A stretch of DNA of 64,000 bases from Candidatus Cloacimonadota bacterium (GTDB lineage Bacteria > Cloacimonadota > Cloacimonadia > G963667145). The translations under genes and the position numbers were made by a program. Under the pieces are notes generated by a model. The model made no database searches, was not told the origin of the DNA, and saw only the letters and a program-made list of their open reading frames with translations. The stretch spans positions 1,175,702 through 1,239,701 of the forward strand of contig OY762940.1 in NCBI GenBank assembly GCA_963667255.1. The letters are read 5' to 3'. This document shows positions 8,098 through 53,215 of the stretch, piece by piece (positions within the stretch are counted from its first letter, which is position 1; every line of letters begins with the position of its first letter).

Positions 8098-9597
8098 GTG
8101 GCAAAGACAGCAATAAATCCAACGAGAGAGCAAAATTATCCGCTGTGGTATCAAGAGGTGATAAAGGCTGCTGATATGGCGGAGAGCAGTTCTGTTAGGG
8201 GTTGCATGGTTATCAAGCCTTGGGGATATGCTATTTGGGAAAATATTCGCAAAGCCTTGGACAAAGAGTTCAAGCGAACTGGTCACAAAAATGCGTATTT
8301 CCCGTTATTTATTCCCAAAAGCTATTTGGAAAAAGAGGCTGAACATGTGGAAGGCTTTGCCAAAGAGTGTGCTGTGGTTACTCACTCTCGATTGGAGAAA
8401 GTCGAAGGTCAAGAAGGTTTGGTTCCCGCAGGTAAGCTGACTCAAGAGTTGGTGGTGCGACCGACATCCGAGACGATAATCGGCGAGTCTTTTTCCAAAT
8501 GGGTAAACTCTTACAAAGATTTGCCTTTGCTCATCAATCAATGGGCTAATGTTGTCAGATGGGAGTTGAGACCGAGGCTGTTTTTGCGAACTGCCGAATT
8601 TTTGTGGCAAGAGGGTCACACCGTTCATTCCACCGCTGACGAGGCTGTCCAAGAGACCTTAATGATTTTGGATATTTACGCCGATTTTTGCAAAGAGATA
8701 TTGGCGATGCCTGTGCTAAAGGGCAAAAAGACGGAATCGGAGAAATTCCCCGGAGCTGCGGATACATATTGTGTGGAAGCGATGATGCAGGACAAAAAGG
8801 CTTTGCAAGCCGGAACGAGCCACTTTTTGGGACAAAATTTTGCCAAATCTTCCGAAATAAAATTTCAGAATAAAGACGGAGAGATGGAATACGCTTGGAC
8901 GACTTCTTGGGGAGTTTCCACGCGTCTGATAGGCGGGCTTATTATGGCTCATTCCGATGATGACGGACTGATATTACCACCGAGAGTCGCTCCAGCACAG
9001 ATAGTTTTGTTGCCCATTTACAAAAATCCTGAGGACGCAAAAAAAGTGCTGAGCTACTTGGAAGAGTTGAAGAAAGATTTGGAAAATATTTCGTATCACG
9101 GCGAAAATTTGGTTGTGATTTTGGATGATAGCGACGCTACCTCTTCCGCTCGCAGTTGGGATTGGATAAAAAAAGGTGTTCCTGTCAGAGTTGAGGTTGG
9201 TTTGCGAGACTTGGAAAAGGACTCTTTGTTTGTTGGCAGGAGAGATAAGGCTCACAAGGGCAAAGAGAGCATTTTGCGGGAGGATTTTTTGTCGCAAATA
9301 GTTTCCACTTTGGACAGTATTCATCACAATATTTACAACAAAGCAAAATCTTTCCTTGATGACAACATAAAGAAAATTGATACAAAAGATGAGTTTTACG
9401 AGATTTTCAAGAGCAAGAACAAGCAACTCTTTGCTTTGTCTCATTGGTGTGGTTGTGCGGAGTGCGAAGAGGCTGTCAAGCAGGATTTAAAAGCGACAAT
9501 TAGGTGCATTCCTTTTTCTTCTGAGAGCGAAGAGGGCAAATGTATTTATTGCGGGAAGCCCAGTAAAAAAAGGGTTATTTTCGCTAAATCTTATTAA
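8098..9597 (+). CDS. proS: proline--tRNA ligase (archaeal/eukaryotic-type short form with C-terminal zinc-binding domain)
   Basis: 499 aa class II aaRS core. C-terminal Cys cluster (CGCAECEE...CIYCGKPS). Confidence 0.85.
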   Translation: MAKTAINPTREQNYPLWYQEVIKAADMAESSSVRGCMVIKPWGYAIWENIRKALDKEFKRTGHKNAYFPLFIPKSYLEKEAEHVEGFAKECAVVTHSRLEKVEGQEGLVPAGKLTQELVVRPTSETIIGESFSKWVNSYKDLPLLINQWANVVRWELRPRLFLRTAEFLWQEGHTVHSTADEAVQETLMILDIYADFCKEILAMPVLKGKKTESEKFPGAADTYCVEAMMQDKKALQAGTSHFLGQNFAKSSEIKFQNKDGEMEYAWTTSWGVSTRLIGGLIMAHSDDDGLILPPRVAPAQIVLLPIYKNPEDAKKVLSYLEELKKDLENISYHGENLVVILDDSDATSSARSWDWIKKGVPVRVEVGLRDLEKDSLFVGRRDKAHKGKESILREDFLSQIVSTLDSIHHNIYNKAKSFLDDNIKKIDTKDEFYEIFKSKNKQLFALSHWCGCAECEEAVKQDLKATIRCIPFSSESEEGKCIYCGKPSKKRVIFAKSY

Positions 9598-9612
9598 AAT
9601 TTTGGAAATTGA

Positions 9613-11181
9613 ATGAAACGATTGGTTATTGGGATGGGGACTTGTGGCAAATCTGTCGGAGCCGGCAAGGTTTTGGAGAAAGCTCGCGAGTTATTGAGCC
9701 GGAATAAAAGCTTGGTTGAGTTGGACACCACAGGTTGTATCGGTATGTGCTATAACGAGCCGTTGGTTTTTGTGGAAGGCGAAGACCATCAACGGACAGT
9801 GTATGCTCGCGTTACTCCAGAAGTTTTGGAAACGATTTTTGAGGAGCATCTGCTGGGTGATAATGTCGTTATAAGTCACAGGATAATGGACCAGCAAGCG
9901 AATTTGGCAAAAGCTTTTTTCCCCAAACAAAAGAGGATTGCCATAAGAAATATTGGGAAACTCAATCCGGAATCTTTCGAAGATTATGAGAATAGGGAAG
10001 GCTTCAGGGCGTTACAAAAGGTCTTAGAAAGTTCAAAGAATGCGATTTTGTCTGTTTTGCAAAGTTGTGGTTTTGAAAATCTCGGAAAATATGAGAATAG
10101 TGCTGTAGATAATATTCCGAAGAAGAAAACGGTCATAATCTGCAATGCAGATTGTTGGGAAAATTCTGCCTTCATTGACAGGTCGCTTTTGGAAGGCAAT
10201 CCGTTTCTAATTATCGAGGGAATGCTGATTGCCGGTTACGCTCTTGGTGCTGACGAAGGCTACATTTCAGTTAGTTCTGAGTTCCCTTACGCAATTGAAT
10301 TTTTGCAAAATGCGATAGAAATCTTAAAAGAAAATAGGGTTCTTGGCAAAAATATTTTTGGAAGTGATTTTAGTTTTGATTTGCATATAAGAGAGGGAGT
10401 TGGAGAGTTTATCGGCATTGGCGACACCTTTTTAGCCTCAAGAGTTGAGAAGAGCGATAGCTTCGTAGAGGTAGAAAATTTTGCTTTCGCCAACTTTGGC
10501 TTGACCAATACTCTTGTTGAGATTGGGACTACCGAGATTTTTGCCAAAATTCCGTGGATAATCTTGAATGGTGCGGAGGAGTGTAAGCAAAATCAGACAA
10601 AAGTTTTGGTCATTTCTGGTAAGATTAACCGCTCGGGATTGATAGAAGCCCCTATTGGAGCAACATTTAGAGAGATAATTTTTGATATTGGCGGTGGGAT
10701 GAAAGATGATGGCATGTTCAAGGCTGCGTTGGTAGGTGGTCTTTCGGGCTTTTGTATTTCGGAGGAACAGTTGGATTTCCCCATAGATTGTGAGTCAATT
10801 GCCCAGATAGGATTTGCTGCGGATTTTAGCAACATCGTTGTGATGGACGAAAGTTCTTGTATGGTTGATGTGGCGAGACATTCGCTTTTATTTGCATTGA
10901 GAGAGAGTTGCGGTAAATGTTTGTCGTGCAGAATAGGGGTAAGAAAACTGTTTGATATTTTAGAAAGAATAGTAGCTGGCAAGGGGAGAAGTGAAGATTT
11001 GGACACTCTTCGGGAGATAGCTGAGGATATCAAAAAATCTGCTTGTTGTGTCGTTGGGAAATCTGCTGCCGATACGGTTTTGTCAACATTGGAATTTTTT
11101 AAAGCCGAATATATTGAGCATATAGAAGGGAAAAAATGTCGTGCGGAAGTTTGCAAATTTGGAGTCACGGAGGTTGTTTAA
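9613..11181 (+). CDS. NADH dehydrogenase 51-kDa subunit (NuoF/HoxF)-like flavoprotein with N-terminal thioredoxin-like NuoE-type domain
   Basis: N-terminal MGTCGKSVGAGKV...CIGMC (NuoE-like 2Fe-2S fold). C-terminal ESCGKCLSCRIG is the 4Fe-4S motif of NuoF. No other complex I subunit genes in the window. Confidence 0.6.
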   Translation: MKRLVIGMGTCGKSVGAGKVLEKARELLSRNKSLVELDTTGCIGMCYNEPLVFVEGEDHQRTVYARVTPEVLETIFEEHLLGDNVVISHRIMDQQANLAKAFFPKQKRIAIRNIGKLNPESFEDYENREGFRALQKVLESSKNAILSVLQSCGFENLGKYENSAVDNIPKKKTVIICNADCWENSAFIDRSLLEGNPFLIIEGMLIAGYALGADEGYISVSSEFPYAIEFLQNAIEILKENRVLGKNIFGSDFSFDLHIREGVGEFIGIGDTFLASRVEKSDSFVEVENFAFANFGLTNTLVEIGTTEIFAKIPWIILNGAEECKQNQTKVLVISGKINRSGLIEAPIGATFREIIFDIGGGMKDDGMFKAALVGGLSGFCISEEQLDFPIDCESIAQIGFAADFSNIVVMDESSCMVDVARHSLLFALRESCGKCLSCRIGVRKLFDILERIVAGKGRSEDLDTLREIAEDIKKSACCVVGKSAADTVLSTLEFFKAEYIEHIEGKKCRAEVCKFGVTEVV

Positions 11182-11638
11182 CATCGTTTTATATCAGCCG
11201 GAAATAGCTCTGAATACTGGCAATATCGGGCGACTTTGCGTTGGTAGTGGCTCAAAGTTGCATCTGATAAGACCGATGAGATTTATGATAGATGATAAGA
11301 GTATTCGTCGTTCGGGACTCGATTATTGGGAGAAGTTGCACTATCGACTTTATGATGATTGGGAAGATTTTTTGAGCTCCAATTCCGGCGGACGGTTCTA
11401 CCTTGCCACAACTAAATCGAGCAGGGTTTACTCTTCCGTTACCTATGAAGAGAACGATTTCTTGATTTTTGGTCCGGAAAGCAGAGGATTGCCGGAAGAG
11501 ATTTTGAACAAGTATTCCGCCAGCACCATTACTATCCCTATGCATCCCGACATTCGCTCTATTAATCTCAGCAATAGCGTGGCGATTGTTTTGTATGAGG
11601 CTGGCAGACAAAGAGGTTTTGAATGGAAAAGTTTGTAA
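11141..11638 (+). CDS. trmL: tRNA (cytidine/uridine-2'-O)-methyltransferase TrmL (SpoU family)
   Basis: FNIVLYQPEIALNTGNIGRLC matches the TrmL N-terminus. The ORF-track start is GTG at 11141. A TTG at 11174 (MFNIVLY...) may be the true start. Confidence 0.75.
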   Translation: MRKFANLESRRLFNIVLYQPEIALNTGNIGRLCVGSGSKLHLIRPMRFMIDDKSIRRSGLDYWEKLHYRLYDDWEDFLSSNSGGRFYLATTKSSRVYSSVTYEENDFLIFGPESRGLPEEILNKYSASTITIPMHPDIRSINLSNSVAIVLYEAGRQRGFEWKSL

Positions 11639-34477: not shown

Positions 34478-35624
34478 TTAATTGGGTCTAATTTCCACTC
34501 CTTTTGAATAATTATTGAACCAAATTTTCAAAAAATGATTCATATTTTTTTCAGATTTAAATCCGTCTAAATTTTTTAATTTCCTATTCAATTGTCGATT
34601 AATATTTTCAATTTTATTTGTTGTTTTATCCAAAAAATCGTAATGAAAATGAGCAGTTAATAAACCAAAGTTTCGATTAATTGATTTAATAAAACGCTTA
34701 TGAATTTTTAGGCGAAAAAATTTTTCATAGTGATTAAGCGAACTTAAATTATTTTCAGCTTCTTGTAAAGTTTCAGCATTTAAAATGCTCTTAATCAAGT
34801 TCTTAAAGAAAATATTTCGTCTAAAAAACTTACTCTTTTTTGTTTTAGGAACATTGATATTAACGCTTCTTAAATAATGAACCAAGCAAATTTGATGTGG
34901 AACATCTTCAAAAAGTTGGTTAACTGGCTTAACAAAGCACATTGATATTAACGCTTCTTAAATAATGAACCAAGCAAATTTGATGTGGAACATCTTCAAA
35001 AAGTTGGTTAACTGGCTTAACAAAGCACTTCCCTCGCCCAAAATCTGACACAATCCCAATTATTTTGTTGTCATACATTTTTTTTAGTCTATTCAAAAAG
35101 TCTTCAGATGAACTACTATGTTCTCTATCATAAATCTTGTAATATATTGGTTTATCAAGTAGTTTGCTACTGGCGACTAAGACAACTTTTCGCTTACCGT
35201 TTATCTTAATTTCCTTGCCATCAATATAAATTGTTGTCTCATCTATATTGCTGTGTAACACATTATCCTGATATAAATTAGCTCGCTGAGGTATCCAATT
35301 AAGAATACTATTTTTACAAATCCCATGTCTTTTAGCAACTTCAGAAAGAGAACTTTTGGTTGAAATATAGTCAGTAACAACCTTATCTTTGAATTTTGGT
35401 GCAAAATGAGTTCTCTTATTATATCCAAAATTGGTAAAACTTATTTGGCAATCTTTACAATAAAATCGTTGAGTTTTGACTTTAATTTTCCCACGATTAG
35501 TTGTTCTTTCAGAGAAAATATATCCCTTCTTTTTTGTGTTTAAGCTATCACAATTTGGACAGTGTTTTTTTTGATTATACTCATGGCATTTTAATAAATG
35601 TTCATAACTTATTCTGTCAAACAT
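34478..35624 (-). pseudogene. DDE transposase with N-terminal zinc ribbon, disrupted by an 88-bp tandem duplication (frameshift)
   Basis: Two overlapping minus-strand ORFs (34929..35624 and 34478..34942). Both contain the same peptide GRGKCFVKPVNQLFEDVPHQICLVHYLRSVNINV. CPNCDSLN...CKDCQ zinc ribbon at the N-terminus. Confidence 0.7.
34851..35026. repeat. perfect 88-bp direct tandem duplication inside the transposase gene
   Basis: acattgatattaacgcttcttaaataatgaaccaagcaaatttgatgtggaacatcttcaaaaagttggttaactggcttaacaaagc occurs at 34851-34938 and again at 34939-35026. 88 is not a multiple of 3. Confidence 0.9.
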
Positions 35625-35685: not shown

Positions 35686-36052
35686 TTGCAGGACAACAAT
35701 TTGAGTGTGAAAAAGATTAAATATTATGTTGATAGTAATGGCAAATGTCAAGTTTCAGAGTTTATAGAGAAATTGGAGACAAAAGTTAAAACAAAAATTC
35801 TTTGGACATTGAAGATTATCAGTGAAGAGAATAGAGTACCTGACAAATATTTTAAGAAATTGCAAAATACTGACGATATTTAGGAAGTAAGAGTTGGCTA
35901 TAATGGCAATGCTTTCAGGTTTTTAGGGTTTTTTTGATAATGGAGAATTGATTAGTCTAAATCATGCTTTTACGAAAAAGAGTCAAAAAACACCTGCAAT
36001 AGAGATAAAGATTGCCGAGAAGAGAAAGGAGGAATATTATGAGTGCTACTGA
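35686..36052 (+). pseudogene. HigB/RelE-superfamily (phage Gp49-like) type II toxin, inactivated
   Basis: MQDNNLSVKKIKYYVDSNG...KKLQNTDDI, then TAG (35884-35886), then EVRVGYNGNAFRFLGFF. After a 1-nt slip in the T-run near 35925 it continues DNGELISLNHAFTKKSQKTPAIEIKIAEKRKEEYYE. The reconstructed sequence matches the family signature. The TAG sits where a Trp (TGG) is expected. Confidence 0.65.
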
Positions 36053-36332
36053 TAGATGCATAGATTTTGATGAGCATTTAGAGCAAATGAAAAAAGATGA
36101 TCCGGTATTCAAAAAGGAGTTTGAAGAGGGTTATGAGGCTTTTAAAATTGGTGCTTTGCTCAAGGGAAGTAGACAAAAAGCTAATCTCACTCAAGAGCAA
36201 GTAGCCAAAAGGGTTAATACAACTAAAAATTTCATTTCACGCTTGGAAAATCATGCTAAGGATGTTAAATTTTCCACCTTGTGCAAATATGCAGAGGCTC
36301 TTGGAAAGAAAATCGAGATAAGAATTGTTTAA
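36039..36332 (+). CDS. HTH XRE-family antitoxin (HigA-like)
   Basis: AGGAGG RBS 7 nt upstream of ATG 36039. LTQEQVAKRVNTTKNFISRLEN helix-turn-helix. Overlaps the end of the toxin frame by 14 bp (toxin-first higBA-type layout). The ORF-track start 36012 lies upstream of the RBS. Confidence 0.7.
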   Translation: MSATDRCIDFDEHLEQMKKDDPVFKKEFEEGYEAFKIGALLKGSRQKANLTQEQVAKRVNTTKNFISRLENHAKDVKFSTLCKYAEALGKKIEIRIV

Positions 36333-48798: not shown

Positions 48799-48816
48799 AA
48801 TAGCTGATTAATTTTT

Positions 48817-48851
48817 AAAAAACGGAATTGAAACTCAATTCCGTTTTTTTT
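48817..48851. terminator. strong bidirectional rho-independent terminator between lysA and the low-GC cassette
   Basis: aaaaaacggaattgaaactcaattccgtttttttt. 9-bp perfect stem cggaattga/tcaattccg with A-run and T-run. Confidence 0.75.
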
Positions 48852-48932
48852 GTTATACTTGATTTAGTTTAGATATTTGGGTGGAGGGCGTTATTGGCTG
48901 TTGTATGTAGTTTAGCTTATTATATATTTTAC

Positions 48933-50216
48933 TTACTCTCCCTCATTTAGGTTAGTCTCTCTCAATAAACCTATTTCGCTTGGAATATCAAAATCATCAA
49001 CGGTTTCATTGTCATATAAGAACACAATTTTTTTTCCGCATTTATAAGCATATCCGATTTCAAGAGAGGTTTTTGTTCCTACATATTTGTCAAAGTTGCA
49101 AACTATAATCATGTCACATGTTTCAATTGCTTTTAAGTGAAGTGCTTCAACAGACCAAGTGCAACGGTTAATAATTTTATCATTTTTAAAAAGAATAAAA
49201 CCTTTCTCAGACCCAACCACTTCAGTATTTAATGGACTATCTACAGTAATACCTTGAGTTTTGAGCACGCCAATTAGCTTTGTAATTTTATCAAGTTGTT
49301 TATTAAAACTTCCGCAAATTACAACATTTTTTACCTCTTGAACATTTATTCCATCAATTAAATTTGAGTCTGAGGGAATTATTTTGTTTATCCCATATTG
49401 CATACAAATAGCTTGAGCTATTGCGGAACAAGCTCTTGCTCCATTCATCCAAGCCGGATTATTAGGCATCATATTACGCAAATCAGCAATTGTTATTTCA
49501 GAAAATATACGTTTATTCTGAATACAATAATTATCAATTGTAATCATTGATGGATGATTTTCATCATCAAAAATATTGTTTTTCTCTAAATAATATCCTG
49601 CAACGTTCATATATGTTAATTCTCCACCTGTATATATTGCAGTATCATATCTTCTATCAACAAAAGGAAGCATATTTGAAATATACTCAACTACTTCGCT
49701 TAAAGGAGTTGGGCTGTACTCTTCATTTATCGCGTTATATTTTTTTAGTATTGTTCCAACACCCAAAGATAACATTTTTCGTTCCGTTACGAAACCGTTA
49801 TTGTAAAAAATCAATTCCGTTGTTTTTCCTCCTATATTTATAATCACTAACTTATTCTTATAATCACAATTTCCTATCCATGCTTTTTCCAAATAAAATG
49901 CCTCTAATTCATGTGAAACAATATTAAAAAAAAGTCGAGTCATAGTATAAAATTCTTCAATAAAAGCTTGCTTATTAGTAAGCTCTCTAAAAATTCCTGT
50001 AGCAAACAACTTAGTATTACTACGTGTAAGTGATAATTCTTCTATCGTTTCATTAAAAAACGAGTACATGTTTTCTTTATTCAGACTTGATAAACCTATC
50101 GCTGAGTCAAATTCATCCTTAAAATCAAATGTTTTCGCTTTAATAAGTTTTACTCTTACCCCATCATGTGTATATATTTTTACAGTTGAAGATCCTACAT
50201 CAATTAAATATTTCAT
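48933..50216 (-). CDS. two-domain protein: Ppx/GppA-like ASKHA domain + C-terminal nucleoside 2-deoxyribosyltransferase (NDT/Rcl)-like domain (cassette gene B)
   Basis: ATG 50216 with AAGGA RBS; the ORF-track TTG 50261 is less likely. Ppx/GppA phosphate-1 motif YLIDVGSSTVKIY. Phosphate-2-like VIINIGGKTTELIF. AIYTGGE. C-terminal GTKTSLEIGYAYKCGKKIVFL resembles the DSGTAFEIGYA...GKP motif of NDT-fold enzymes. GC visibly lower than flanking genes. Confidence 0.6.
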   Translation of the reverse strand: MKYLIDVGSSTVKIYTHDGVRVKLIKAKTFDFKDEFDSAIGLSSLNKENMYSFFNETIEELSLTRSNTKLFATGIFRELTNKQAFIEEFYTMTRLFFNIVSHELEAFYLEKAWIGNCDYKNKLVIINIGGKTTELIFYNNGFVTERKMLSLGVGTILKKYNAINEEYSPTPLSEVVEYISNMLPFVDRRYDTAIYTGGELTYMNVAGYYLEKNNIFDDENHPSMITIDNYCIQNKRIFSEITIADLRNMMPNNPAWMNGARACSAIAQAICMQYGINKIIPSDSNLIDGINVQEVKNVVICGSFNKQLDKITKLIGVLKTQGITVDSPLNTEVVGSEKGFILFKNDKIINRCTWSVEALHLKAIETCDMIIVCNFDKYVGTKTSLEIGYAYKCGKKIVFLYDNETVDDFDIPSEIGLLRETNLNEGE

Positions 50217-50253: not shown

Positions 50254-52371
50254 TTAATCAATATTTTCTATTGGCCAATATTCTTTTGGAATGAATGATA
50301 ATTGCACATCCTCAATTGGCTTTTGCCAAAATGCAATTGTTTTCCTTAAGGCATATGCATAATATATTTCGCATTTTGTCGATTCCCCTATATATCCATT
50401 ATTATATTTATTACATATAAAAAGGACATCACAATCATCTATTGCTGTTAAGTGTTCATACTCTGTGTCGGGAGAAATATCTTTTTTTAACTTTCCCTTT
50501 CGATCAAATTTTGGGCTTAATACCTTAACATCTTTCATTTCTTCCATTTTTTTACTGGCTTTATACAAGTATTTAGTTCCTTTATCATGAGTAGTCCCAC
50601 TAATTACAATATTAAAAACATACGCATTTATATTTGCACTAATAGTTAAATCGTCTTTCGGAATTACTATCTTATTATTTAGCTTATCAAGAATAGTTTC
50701 AATAATTATATGTCCAAATTTGAAGCCATGTAGTCTTTTCACCATTGTTTCATCGTCATACTCTTTTTTTAAGGACTCTAAATAATTTGCAGAAAATAAC
50801 GCTTCTCTATTATGAATTTTATATTCATCTTGAGAAAGACATTGCTCATTTGCATTTTGCTTTAGTCGATATCCCATTTCATTCATAAATTTCAATTCAC
50901 CCTTTAGTATAATCGCTTGATTAATCTTTACTCCATCTAGCGATGATTCTATTTTATTTTCTATAAATTTCTTTATTTTATTAATTGAGTTATCATCCCA
51001 TACTTCCGATGCAATATTAGTGGATACATAAGTTTGAACATCTTTTATCGTTACTAATAAATTGTACTCATGATATTCTTTTCCAGAATAATATAAAATA
51101 TCTGTGCAATGAGAACCTATATTAATTATTGCCGTCCCATCACTTAAATTTCCAAACAAACGATCAATGTTTTCAGTTGTTTTCTCTTTAGAGATAATAT
51201 TAAAATACAGATTTGTTTCTTTATAGAATTTCCGGATAACATCTTTTAACTTTTTAGGCTCATTTTCGTTAAATATTTCCCCAAATCTATAATCTACGAA
51301 AACTTTTCTCAGCATTTGAGAATCATTTTTATGTACTTTCTCTGATTGTAATAAGGATTTTACGCAAGCTATAATTTCATCGAGATGAAAATTGTCTTTA
51401 AAAACATCACAGTTATAGCTTATCATCTCAAGTTCCTTAGAATTATCTTTGTCTATAATTTCAAAAAGACGACATGATGTTGTTCCAATGTTTATAAAGT
51501 AACCTAATGGTCCAGCTACTTTTTTAGGTTTTTTATTCATATTATTTTGTTGTTTTTTTTTTTGCGTAATGCTTCCTGTTGATATGTTTCTTTTTTTGGG
51601 CAATTTATCAAATGCATTTTTTTTTAAAAACACGTGTTCTAATAATGATACAGCTGCCTTTGAAGCCATAATTTGATTTTTTTCTTTGTTCGGATTTTCT
51701 TTATTTACTCCCCAATCACAAATCGCTTTTACAATTATCCATTCGTCCATTCTTGCTTTTTTGCATGCAGCATAAGCCCCACGTCCTTCCATTTCTCCAC
51801 CAATTGCACGTGGTGCATCCTTAAAAAGTTTTTTCTTGTAGACAAGATCATCTACAACTTTATTTCCTGATAGAATCATTCCAAATTCACATTTTAATTT
51901 TCTTGAGCCACTATAGTTCTCCCATGTTTTTGAGTAATTCTTAAAAACTGATAATAATGTTTCTCCTGCCTCTGCTCTTACTCCATCAGATAGGAATTTT
52001 CCATTTGTTATTTTACCACTTTCACAATCTACCATAATTTCTGATATTAAAACATCTCCAATATGTTGCTTAGGGTTTTTTTCATTTCCGTTCTCTTTAC
52101 CAAATGCAATTCCAAGCAAAATTACAGCATCTGGTTCCCACCCTTTAATAGCCGCATTAATTGAAAATAATGCAGCTCCTGTTTTTGCTGTTCCTTTATT
52201 TTGCAATTCAAAATGAATTATATCATAATTCCCTATTTCCCCAACATTATAAAAATTGTTATCATCGGTGGCTTTAGCCCGCTGATTCTTTTCGTAATTA
52301 AAATTTTTACAATTTAGTAATGCATTTGTTTCATGATTGTTCGCCGTTACAAGTAGAAATCGTTTCTTCAT
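50254..52371 (-). CDS. three-domain protein: N-terminal PNP/MTA-nucleosidase-like domain + Ppx/GppA-like ASKHA domain + C-terminal NDT/Rcl-like domain (cassette gene A)
   Basis: ATG 52371 with AGGAG RBS; the ORF-track TTG 52389 would add 6 aa. PNP_UDP_1 signatures: FLLVTANNHETNALL, DAVILLGIAFG, AIGGEMEGRGAYAAC and IIVKAICDWG. Compare MTAN AVEMEATAIAHVC/VVRAISD. Mid-domain GYFINIGTTSCRLF and IINIGSHCTDIL (Ppx/GppA-like). C-terminal GESTKCEIYYAYALRKTIAFW (NDT-like). Confidence 0.6.
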   Translation of the reverse strand: MKKRFLLVTANNHETNALLNCKNFNYEKNQRAKATDDNNFYNVGEIGNYDIIHFELQNKGTAKTGAALFSINAAIKGWEPDAVILLGIAFGKENGNEKNPKQHIGDVLISEIMVDCESGKITNGKFLSDGVRAEAGETLLSVFKNYSKTWENYSGSRKLKCEFGMILSGNKVVDDLVYKKKLFKDAPRAIGGEMEGRGAYAACKKARMDEWIIVKAICDWGVNKENPNKEKNQIMASKAAVSLLEHVFLKKNAFDKLPKKRNISTGSITQKKKQQNNMNKKPKKVAGPLGYFINIGTTSCRLFEIIDKDNSKELEMISYNCDVFKDNFHLDEIIACVKSLLQSEKVHKNDSQMLRKVFVDYRFGEIFNENEPKKLKDVIRKFYKETNLYFNIISKEKTTENIDRLFGNLSDGTAIINIGSHCTDILYYSGKEYHEYNLLVTIKDVQTYVSTNIASEVWDDNSINKIKKFIENKIESSLDGVKINQAIILKGELKFMNEMGYRLKQNANEQCLSQDEYKIHNREALFSANYLESLKKEYDDETMVKRLHGFKFGHIIIETILDKLNNKIVIPKDDLTISANINAYVFNIVISGTTHDKGTKYLYKASKKMEEMKDVKVLSPKFDRKGKLKKDISPDTEYEHLTAIDDCDVLFICNKYNNGYIGESTKCEIYYAYALRKTIAFWQKPIEDVQLSFIPKEYWPIENID

Positions 52372-52508
52372 AAGCCATTCTCCTCTCAAAATATAGTACC
52401 TGTCTATTTAATTTCAAATTAAAATATTTTGCATTTATGTTGTTTTGTTTTTTAATATTTATCTTAATTTCCCTTCCAAATTGTACACAACATTTAAATA
52501 ACCTCAAC

Positions 52509-52544
52509 TGTGTTTATTTATCCAAATTGGGAGGGATAAACACA
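52509..52544. repeat. inverted repeat in the divergent intergenic region upstream of cassette gene A
   Basis: tgtgtttat (52509-52517) and ataaacaca (52536-52544) are perfect reverse complements. The arms extend to tatcc/ggata with a 3-nt bulge. Confidence 0.5.
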
Positions 52545-52675
52545 ATTGCCTTTATTTTCCTTTATATTTTTATTCACAATAAAAAAGTTAAGTTTTCTTT
52601 GTCAACTCATATTTCCTTGACTGATTTTTCCTTTTAATCTTCTTAAAATCACTATCTAAATCAAGGAAAATTTAA

Positions 52676-53215
52676 ATGAATTGTATAGAAATTGCCCTTA
52701 AACACATTCGCCAAGATTTGTGGGATTCGTATTTTGTTCATTCTGTTTTGGTTACGCAGATGTCTTTGGAGATTGCGGAGAATTTGAATTTGGACGAAGC
52801 AATCAAACAGTTTATCCGAGAAGCTGCTATGCTCCACGATATAGGTATCGGAGAAGTGAGTATGGACAAGAAAAATCCGCAAAACAAGCCACCATACATC
52901 ACTCACGGACTCGTTGGTTTTCGGATTTTGAGCGAATTGGGCTACCCCAAGCACGCACTCGTCTGTCGCAATCACATCGGTGTAGGGCTTACCAAGGAGA
53001 TTATCTTGCGGAACGGATTTCCTTTGCCTGCTGAGGATATGACACCATCTACCTTACCTGAAGAGATAATCACTTATGCGGACTTGTTTTTTAGCAAAAG
53101 CAATCCTTTCAAAAAGAGGAGTTTTGCCGAGGTTGTGAAGAAAATAGAAACCTACGGGCAAGAGCAATTAGACAAATTTCATCAACTGCATAAAAAATTT
53201 TCTTCGCTCAAATAA
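52676..53215 (+). CDS. HD-domain phosphohydrolase
   Basis: 179 aa. H...HD motif (AAMLHDIGIG). Downstream His residues (ITHGLVGFRIL, CRNHIGVGL). Host-like GC. Confidence 0.65.
   Translation: MNCIEIALKHIRQDLWDSYFVHSVLVTQMSLEIAENLNLDEAIKQFIREAAMLHDIGIGEVSMDKKNPQNKPPYITHGLVGFRILSELGYPKHALVCRNHIGVGLTKEIILRNGFPLPAEDMTPSTLPEEIITYADLFFSKSNPFKKRSFAEVVKKIETYGQEQLDKFHQLHKKFSSLK

Follow-up and report, generated by a model that had tools for sequence, protein, structure and literature searches.

A PNP/MTAN-fold head on a Ppx/GppA-NDT body: a probable immune ATP-nucleosidase effector in a mobile two-gene cassette of a Cloacimonadota genome

We analysed a stretch of 64,000 nucleotides from the genome of a Candidatus Cloacimonadota bacterium (GenBank assembly GCA_963667255.1, contig OY762940.1, positions 1,175,702 to 1,239,701), referred to below as the window and numbered from its first letter, and in particular a two-gene cassette whose members we call Gene A and Gene B. 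The Gene A protein carries an N-terminal domain of the PNP nucleosidase fold, the head, in front of a Ppx/GppA-type ASKHA domain and a domain resembling nucleoside 2-deoxyribosyltransferase (NDT); Gene B, directly downstream, encodes a paralogue of this C-terminal module. From the comparisons described below we conclude that Gene A is probably an immune ATP-nucleosidase effector of a candidate modular two-gene abortive-infection/anti-phage system that was acquired horizontally. An earlier note, made from the DNA letters, had reported an intact catalytic signature of 5'-methylthioadenosine/S-adenosylhomocysteine (MTA/SAH) nucleosidases at the N-terminus of Gene A, fused upstream of an ASKHA domain. 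We now extend that two-domain layout by the third, NDT-like domain after the ASKHA domain and by the paralogy of the whole C-terminal module with Gene B.

The nucleosidase domain of Gene A

Gene A is an intact open reading frame (ORF) on the minus strand at 50254..52371, encoding 705 amino acids from the ATG at 52371. The mechanically called ORF (50254..52389) begins with TTG and has 711 codons; the true start is the in-frame ATG, which has a Shine-Dalgarno sequence (AGGAG) 8 nt to its 5' side and a promoter-like TTGAAA-16-TATATT at 52417-52390, and public gene calls for the identical protein likewise have 705 amino acids. Residue numbers below are those of the 705-residue protein, to which 6 must be added for ORF and alignment numbering. 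The segment 51463..52371 (minus strand) covers amino acids 1-303, which takes in the PNP domain (1-258), the linker after it (259-288) and 15 amino acids from the start of the next domain. Features of the gene and its head are as follows.

50254..52371, minus strand: Gene A, with PNP head, linker, degenerate Ppx/GppA domain and NDT-like domain (intact ORF, 44 homologues, AF2 model)
51598..52371, minus strand: PNP/MTAN-fold nucleosidase domain, predicted effector, amino acids 1-258 (Foldseek, PDB profile, PADLOC, family HMM)
52330..52332, minus strand: codon of E14, corresponding to MtnN Glu12 (alignment, position in the model, 44/44)
52099..52113, minus strand: GIAFG loop, amino acids 87-91, corresponding to MtnN G75-S76-A77-G78-G79 (hhalign, conservation)
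51784..51801, minus strand: GGEMEG, amino acids 191-196, with E193-M194-E195 corresponding to MtnN E172-M173-E174 (hhalign, alignment, 44/44)
51715..51729, minus strand: KAICD, amino acids 215-219, with D219 corresponding to MtnN D197 and DtcC D353 and matching the Cap17 D472 motif (alignment, primers)

The fold of the head was approached from both sequence and predicted structure. When the single Gene A sequence was searched against the PDB, the sole matches were MTA/SAH nucleosidases (3bl6, E 7e-4), and a profile of the Gene A family, a set of 44 full-length homologues with 38-56% overall identity, matched the same Staphylococcus aureus MTAN structure at E 2.9e-12. Alignment of the family with Escherichia coli MtnN by hhalign reached a probability of 95% and paired PDAVILLGIAFGK with PDVIINTGSAGGL, GIAFG with GSAGG, AIGGEMEG with AIAVEMEA, and VKAICD with VRAISD. 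The AlphaFold2 (AF2) model of Gene A has a mean pLDDT of 81, and a Foldseek search with it returned 3bl6 and 1nc1 at E 5e-16 to 4e-15, with TM-scores (target) of 0.81-0.84 over ~250 columns. As modelled, amino acids 1-258 are an alpha/beta domain of the PNP/MTAN fold.

The motifs NNHETNALL, GIAFG, GGEMEG and KAICD, on which the earlier note had based its claim, are all present at coordinates that we verified. We aligned the Gene A domain with E. coli MtnN and with the DtcC PNP domain, fungal NLRN and sponge DDAN (Rousset et al. 2023, Table S8); the invariant columns of this alignment, A2, include E14, G87, G91, E193-M194-E195 and D219 (MtnN E12, E172-M173-E174 and D197). Residues A10, E14, G87, F90, G91, E193, M194, E195, K215, C218 and D219 are identical in all 44 homologues, and I88 is kept in 42 of them, at a position where immune PNPs carry G-[IV]-x-x-G. 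The Glu/Glu/Asp set that had been called intact from one sequence is therefore invariant across the family and in three proven ATP nucleosidases, and in the fold search the domain matched the PNP/MTAN fold (TM 0.84). Equivalence of E14 with MtnN Glu12 is based on the MAFFT alignment and on its place in the beta1-loop-alpha1 region of the model, in the first turn of helix 1. D219 is aligned with DtcC D353, and its match to 'ISDFGD' of Cap17 (D472) was read from the D472A primer: according to the published primers (Table S7), Cap17-D472A hits the Asp of 'ISDFGD' and DtcC-D353A that of 'VVDMGD', and mutating the Cap17 PNP site abolished defence (Rousset et al. 2023, bioRxiv 10.1101/2023.01.24.525353). 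Relative to MtnN, Gene A has Ile for Ser76, Lys for Arg193 and Val at the position of Phe151; the active immune ATP nucleosidases in A2 show like changes, with Ile or Val for Ser76 and a small hydrophobic residue for Phe151, and Lys in place of Arg193 is likewise seen in the immune clade. The reported signature is thus borne out at a level far above chance, and that the head is catalytically competent is a reasonable reading of these alignments. The GIAFG loop is present as described, and the label 'phosphate-binding' given to it is loose because MTAN is a hydrolase.

The description of the domain as 'MTA/SAH-nucleosidase-type' holds for its fold and its catalytic residues and fails for orthology. 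Gene A scores 32.2 bits against the NCBIfam equivalog PRK05584 (MtnN), for which the cut-off is 169 bits, and we ruled out an MtnN orthologue on this ground. When Gene A was scanned with PADLOC models, PDC-M60C (5e-12) and a CBASS PN-superfamily effector (2e-7) were matched, in both cases within the PNP domain. A hidden Markov model (HMM) of the Gene A family gave 113 bits to sponge DDAN, 42 to fungal NLRN and 36 to MtnN. Outside the full-length family, the domain is most closely related to the heads of a protein with NB-ARC and TPR domains (P0048) and of one with a C-terminal TIR domain (P0050), with 56% identity over amino acids 1-290, and further matches are fused to STAND, NACHT, TPR, HD and TIR domains. 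The same fusion pattern has been described for the Cap17 clade, and the domains of DDAN and NLRN are toxic to E. coli and, once purified, cleave ATP in preference to dATP and act poorly on other adenylates; among NTPs and dNTPs, DDAN acts on ATP and dATP only (Rousset et al. 2023, bioRxiv 10.1101/2023.01.24.525353). Judged by these similarities the head likely belongs to the Cap17/DtcC-like immune PNP clade, and by analogy with its relatives its substrate is most likely ATP/dATP.

The Ppx/GppA-NDT module, its partner and its exchangeable heads

The remainder of Gene A and the downstream partner gene comprise the following features.

51508..51597, minus strand: Lys-rich flexible linker, amino acids 259-288 (pLDDT <50; varies among homologues in length and sequence)
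50635..51507, minus strand: Ppx/GppA-type ASKHA domain of Gene A, amino acids 289-579, catalytically degenerate (Foldseek, hhalign)
50257..50634, minus strand: NDT-like Rossmannoid domain of Gene A, amino acids 580-705 (aligns to the Gene B NDT-like domain; weak Pfam match)
48933..50216, minus strand: Gene B, 427 amino acids, with Ppx/GppA (49341..50216) and NDT-like (48936..49340) domains; partner protein, paralogous to the C-terminal module of Gene A

In the Foldseek search, amino acids 289-579 of the Gene A model matched the Ppx/GppA protein of Aquifex aeolicus (1t6d_B) at E 9e-14, which bears out the fusion of the head to an ASKHA domain and narrows that domain to the Ppx/GppA type. Gene B begins 37 nt past the Gene A stop codon and has its own Shine-Dalgarno sequence. 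Amino acids 289-698 of Gene A (295-704 of the ORF) align to amino acids 1-415 of Gene B with an hhalign probability of 100% (E 3e-41; BLASTP E 3e-18), and Gene A is therefore a PNP head attached to a Gene B paralogue. Gene B itself was identified as Ppx/GppA by Pfam (35.9 bits) and by PDB profile search (E 8.9e-16), and its AF2 model has a pLDDT of 92.6 and a pTM of 0.86.

Gene B retains the phosphate-1 Asp (D6), the catalytic Glu (E105, which aligns with the Glu in 'EQEG' of A. aeolicus), a second Glu (E134) and the GG motif, and has Asn at the PPX phosphate-2 Asp position. The ASKHA domain of Gene A, confirmed as such, lacks the catalytic Glu and phosphate-1 Asp of Ppx/GppA enzymes: Asn stands at the phosphate-1 Asp in 34 of the 44 homologues and Thr at the catalytic Glu in every one, with Asn at the phosphate-2 Asp and K-[D/G] in place of GG. 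Because the catalytic Ppx/GppA residues are replaced, we infer from the sequences that this domain is a pseudo-enzyme. The Pfam Nuc_deoxyrib_tr match of the last domain of Gene A is weak. Its motif residues H, C-D, G, T and A, from H..A..CD and G..T..E..A, are found in 44/44 homologues and the Glu in 43/44, and the corresponding domain of Gene B retains both motifs as well, including the nucleophile Glu of NDT/Rcl enzymes. The C-terminal domains of both proteins are of the NDT fold with the catalytic Glu motif.

The C-terminal module of Gene A was searched against 1.84 billion representative proteins, and Pfam scanning of the matches revealed that this chassis bears different heads. PNP is the commonest; the others are Metallophos plus PNP (P0254), the caspase Peptidase_C14 (P0256), SIR2_2 (P0263), a cytidine/dCMP deaminase (P0245), SMEK_N (P0259, P0262) and, marginally, TIR_2 (P0047, at locus L093; 27 bits vs a 28-bit cut-off), together with two heads of no assigned family and headless forms of the chassis. 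Where the head is a caspase, TIR or deaminase, a B-type gene lies downstream. The SIR2 and SMEK variants have no downstream B gene on their short contigs and were not counted as the same two-gene system. PNP, TIR, SIR2, caspase, deaminase and calcineurin-like phosphoesterase domains are standard terminal effectors of prokaryotic conflict systems (Rousset et al. 2023; Kaur et al. 2020). Because the heads interchange on one scaffold, a behaviour hard to fit to a metabolic pathway, we read the PNP domain as the output of a Ppx/GppA-NDT sensor or regulator.

Some variants were distinctive in gene content. At L180:176-3591 a split form has a 266-amino-acid PNP gene, a 419-amino-acid headless A-module and a 430-amino-acid B in a row, beside Tad/Flp pilus genes. 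The partner in the deaminase variant (L177:969-5876, and L178) is a 601-amino-acid B-type protein with an extra NDT/MJ0874-like region, and a conserved third gene of 297 amino acids follows it. In the caspase variant the A-type gene is preceded by a gene for a 98-amino-acid Pepco-domain protein (L175:423-719), which overlaps its start.

Ppx/GppA and NDT enzymes are oligomeric. We propose, with clearly less confidence than we place in the effector role, that A and B would associate through their paralogous modules as an enzyme/pseudo-enzyme hetero-oligomer, and that this putative assembly would monitor or process a phosphate-rich nucleotide ligand such as an alarmone, an NTP or dNTP, or a phage-modified nucleotide. 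While the ligand is in its normal state the assembly would hold the PNP head off; infection, the presumed trigger, would shift the ligand state and release the head, which would then hydrolyse ATP/dATP to adenine and (deoxy)ribose-5'-triphosphate, and the infection would be aborted. For Cap17 and DtcC, hydrolysis of ATP/dATP that aborts infection has been shown (Rousset et al. 2023, bioRxiv 10.1101/2023.01.24.525353). A broader idea, which we put forward tentatively and regard as doubtful, is that Ppx/GppA-NDT could be an immune sensor class derived from a nucleotide-salvage enzyme, in which an active B and a dead A body would survey the nucleotide/polyphosphate pool and fire whichever head is carried; this would make up a novel multi-effector defence family shared by bacteria and methanogenic archaea.

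Distribution and genomic setting of the cassette

A profile scan found full-length Gene A in 4 of 185,579 species-representative genomes, namely an Oscillospiraceae metagenome-assembled genome (MAG), Diplocloster hominis, an Acutalibacteraceae MAG and a Clostridiales MAG, and protein searches added an Actinomyces sp. and a Methanocorpusculum MAG. The A-B pair is sporadic across Firmicutes, Actinomyces and one methanogen. Gene pairing was consistent: wherever upstream DNA was available for B homologues at least 50% identical to that of the window (>20 loci, including Diplocloster, Oscillospiraceae and the Methanocorpusculum MAG), an A-type gene lies directly upstream on the same strand in nearly every case, L105 having a short fragment alone upstream of the B homologue.

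B homologues that are 40-44% identical to the one in the window are solo and come from environmental metagenomes (L113-L172; for example L170:1717-2409, L156:8227-8778 and L169:9187-9780). Several have as their next gene one for a P-loop kinase-like protein (7 loci, with a 4-nt overlap), one for a Nudix hydrolase (6 loci) or one of Ham1/ITPase-like type (5 loci), neighbours that hint at an ancestral role of the Ppx/GppA-NDT fusion in nucleotide metabolism or sanitation.

In the window the cassette (~3.5-3.7 kb) lies in a low-GC island, with a GC content of 0.275-0.32 over 48.9-52.6 kb vs 0.38-0.44 in the flanks. Two further features delimit it.

52372..52675, minus strand: AT-rich region 5' of Gene A, with the promoter-like site, the Shine-Dalgarno sequence and the upper edge of the low-GC island
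48817..48849, no strand assigned: perfect 15-bp hairpin with A and T runs, a bidirectional terminator for both the A-B operon and the lysA-like gene that converges on it

At other loci, insertion sequence (IS) elements adjoin the cassette. On a 334-kb metagenomic contig (L111) a complete Gabija system lies 0.9 kb downstream of A-B (8143-11327; GajA E 6e-242, GajB E 6.5e-197), and an Eco57I-type restriction-modification methylase, PDC-S04 and SoFic occur near A-B elsewhere. The cassette is horizontally mobile. Relatives of Gene B were not found in the viral contigs of IMG/VR, and the cassette is therefore not phage-borne, as far as we have seen. At the bounds of the island we found no convincing direct or inverted repeats and no att or dif-like sites. 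An empty-site allele was sought by exact look-up of the neighbouring HD protein, which returned two short contigs of the same lineage, both with the cassette context.

This neighbour, at 52676-53215 (plus strand), is a 179-amino-acid HD-domain protein that is divergent from Gene A in orientation; its GC content is host-like (~0.38-0.41) and it is also adjacent on the contig of a related strain, and it probably lies outside the cassette. Cumulative GC skew over positions 1-64000 climbs to ~48.9 kb and then declines, and genes flip from the plus to the minus strand there, with transcription converging. The pattern at positions 48800-49000 resembles that of a replication terminus, or else some other kind of skew switch, and it is exactly here that the A-B cassette lies; we did not recognise a dif-like repeat at this switch.

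A second low-GC patch (GC 0.31) lies at 34-36 kb. At 34478-35624 (minus strand) it has overlapping ORFs of 231 and 154 amino acids with a duplicated segment of ~30 amino acids, CFVKPVNQLFEDVPHQICLVHYLRSVNINV, the first ORF having a zinc-finger-like N-terminus; the region looks like a disrupted or duplicated IS transposase. Adjoining this remnant, a small ORF at 36012-36332 (plus strand) has an XRE/HigA-like helix-turn-helix at its C-terminus and may be an orphan antitoxin or regulator. The 64-kb window has no tRNA genes and no Rfam matches. The proteins of the window are singletons at 90% identity, and its source lineage is therefore very poorly sampled.

Competing explanations and comparison with known systems

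Several observations weigh against an immune ATP nucleosidase. Pfam PF01048 has no match at E<1 on Gene A's own sequence; it is precomputed on most Gene A homologues and scores 59 bits on P0258 and 35 bits on P0046, and we did not weigh the missing match against the PNP fold, since profile, fold search and homologues are in accord. With the family HMM that favours DDAN, neither DtcC (31 bits) nor partial Cap17 (21 bits) outscores MtnN (36 bits), and the putative clade placement draws on the comparisons with DDAN and NLRN and on neighbours in domain architecture instead of a tree. As for genomic setting, the flanks in the window are housekeeping (EF-G-like, lysA-like and phosphatidylserine decarboxylase genes) with no defence island there, known defence genes lie close to only ~4-5 of 18 distinct loci, and the neighbourhoods of solo B genes suggest that the chassis may still act as a nucleotide-metabolism enzyme.

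These points bear on different alternatives. If the PNP domain were a decayed, non-catalytic binding module, the lack of a Pfam match on Gene A and the replacement of MtnN Ser76, Arg193 and Phe151 by Ile, Lys and Val would be accounted for; we give this almost no credence, since the equivalents of Glu12, Glu172-Met173-Glu174 and Asp197 are kept in 44/44 homologues and the changes at Ser76 and Phe151 recur in active ATP nucleosidases. An active head might instead serve something other than ATP depletion, by releasing a base as a signal or by acting on (p)ppApp, pppGpp-like alarmones, NAD-derived compounds or MTA/SAH. Base-releasing signal generation by PNPase domains was predicted by Kaur et al. 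2020, the GppA-like fusion partner suggests polyphosphorylated nucleotides, the DtcC and Cap17 scores are modest, and no triphosphate-specifying residues are known, so that sequence cannot fix the substrate. For every tested PNP of the immune clade (Cap17, DtcC, NLRN and DDAN) ATP nucleosidase activity is nevertheless reported, of the tested relatives DDAN is the closest, and a swappable N-terminal head that alternates with TIR, SIR2 and caspase occupies the position of a terminal effector, all of which makes a different output unlikely in our judgement.

The two-gene arrangement also suggests something like a toxin-antitoxin pair, in which A would be a constitutive toxin that B neutralises by binding it or by hydrolysing its product, loss of B being the trigger. 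The tight operon with B downstream, the toxicity of isolated immune PNP domains in E. coli and the direct A:B contact suggested by the paralogous modules agree with this. B is, on the other hand, large and enzyme-like with conserved catalytic positions, unlike typical labile antitoxins, and B-type proteins also occur alone; we think such a pair quite unlikely, and it overlaps the release model proposed above instead of excluding it. Finally, A and B might form a multi-enzyme for nucleotide salvage or sanitation, with nucleosidase, Ppx/GppA phosphohydrolase and NDT/Rcl N-glycosidases acting in series. All three folds come from families of nucleotide-metabolising enzymes, solo B genes lie beside P-loop kinase-like, Nudix and Ham1/ITPase-like genes, and the flanks of the window are housekeeping. 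Exchange of the PNP head for TIR, caspase, SIR2 or deaminase would, however, make no sense in a fixed pathway; the Gene A ASKHA domain is without catalytic residues, the PNP is nearest to immune-type PNPs, and the A-B pair is rare, patchy, low in GC and found beside IS elements or Gabija. We regard this explanation as very unlikely, and an immune effector on a mobile two-gene cassette as the probable one.

The earlier note's remark that a fusion of such a head to an ASKHA domain had not been described agrees with the searchable literature, in which we found none. The PNP-Ppx/GppA-NDT fusion is not mentioned in the ATP-nucleosidase paper and its supplement, in the modularity-network preprint or in the survey of Kaur et al. 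2020. Full-text searches combining Ppx/GppA, exopolyphosphatase, ASKHA or NDT with phage defence gave nothing relevant, an earlier in-silico mention being still possible, and among the PADLOC v2 models there is none that fits Gene B or the C-terminal module of Gene A (P0122, P0123 and P0131 were also scanned). If the cassette is a defence system as predicted, it would represent a new sensing logic in prokaryotic immunity, probably nucleotide- or alarmone-based. Being compact, with two genes, it is easily tested, and candidate catalytic residues of the head are E14, E195 and D219, those of Gene B being D6 and E105.

Among known enzymes, MtnN (Pfs) of E. coli and S. aureus shares with the Gene A head its fold (TM 0.84) and the Glu/Glu-Met-Glu/Asp set; unlike MtnN, the head is fused to 450 more residues and resides in a mobile low-GC cassette without methionine-salvage context. 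The two-lobed ASKHA fold of Ppx/GppA proteins (A. aeolicus 1T6C/1T6D, Helicobacter pylori PPX/GppA and E. coli GppA) recurs in Gene B and in the middle part of Gene A, and in both of these proteins the HD-like domains III/IV of the long PPX/GppA forms are absent and an NDT-like domain is found there. The comparison group for these C-terminal domains is the superfamily of nucleoside 2-deoxyribosyltransferase, Rcl (DNPH1) and MilB N-glycosidase.

Among immune systems, the PNP/MTAN fold is common to the Gene A head, Cap17 (type III CBASS TPALS-PNP), DtcC (Detocs) and PNP-headed Avs/NLR proteins. Gene A and the Cap17/DtcC clade have in common the motifs [TC]-A-x-x-x-E, G-[IV]-x-x-G, E-M-E and [KR]-[AG]-[IV]-x-D and a modular PNP that serves as head or tail of an immune-type protein. 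The cassette differs from CBASS, Detocs and Avs in being without a CD-NTase, histidine kinase/receiver or STAND NTPase; its regulatory part, unlike those of Cap17, DtcC and Avs, combines a dead Ppx/GppA domain with an NDT-like one and has a paralogous partner protein. Membership in CBASS, Detocs, Avs or PDC-M60 was ruled out, as the operon consists of A and B and the signature partners are absent. Thoeris, short pAgo, Avs and Panoptes-type guards resemble A-B in being sporadic and mobile and in having a sensor chassis with swappable killing or arrest heads, and none of them has a Ppx/GppA-NDT enzyme/pseudo-enzyme pair. Set beside these systems, the effector would be a new member of the known immune ATP nucleosidases, and the chassis, which is apparently undescribed, is the more interesting part, combining an enzyme/pseudo-enzyme pair with at least six alternative effector heads.

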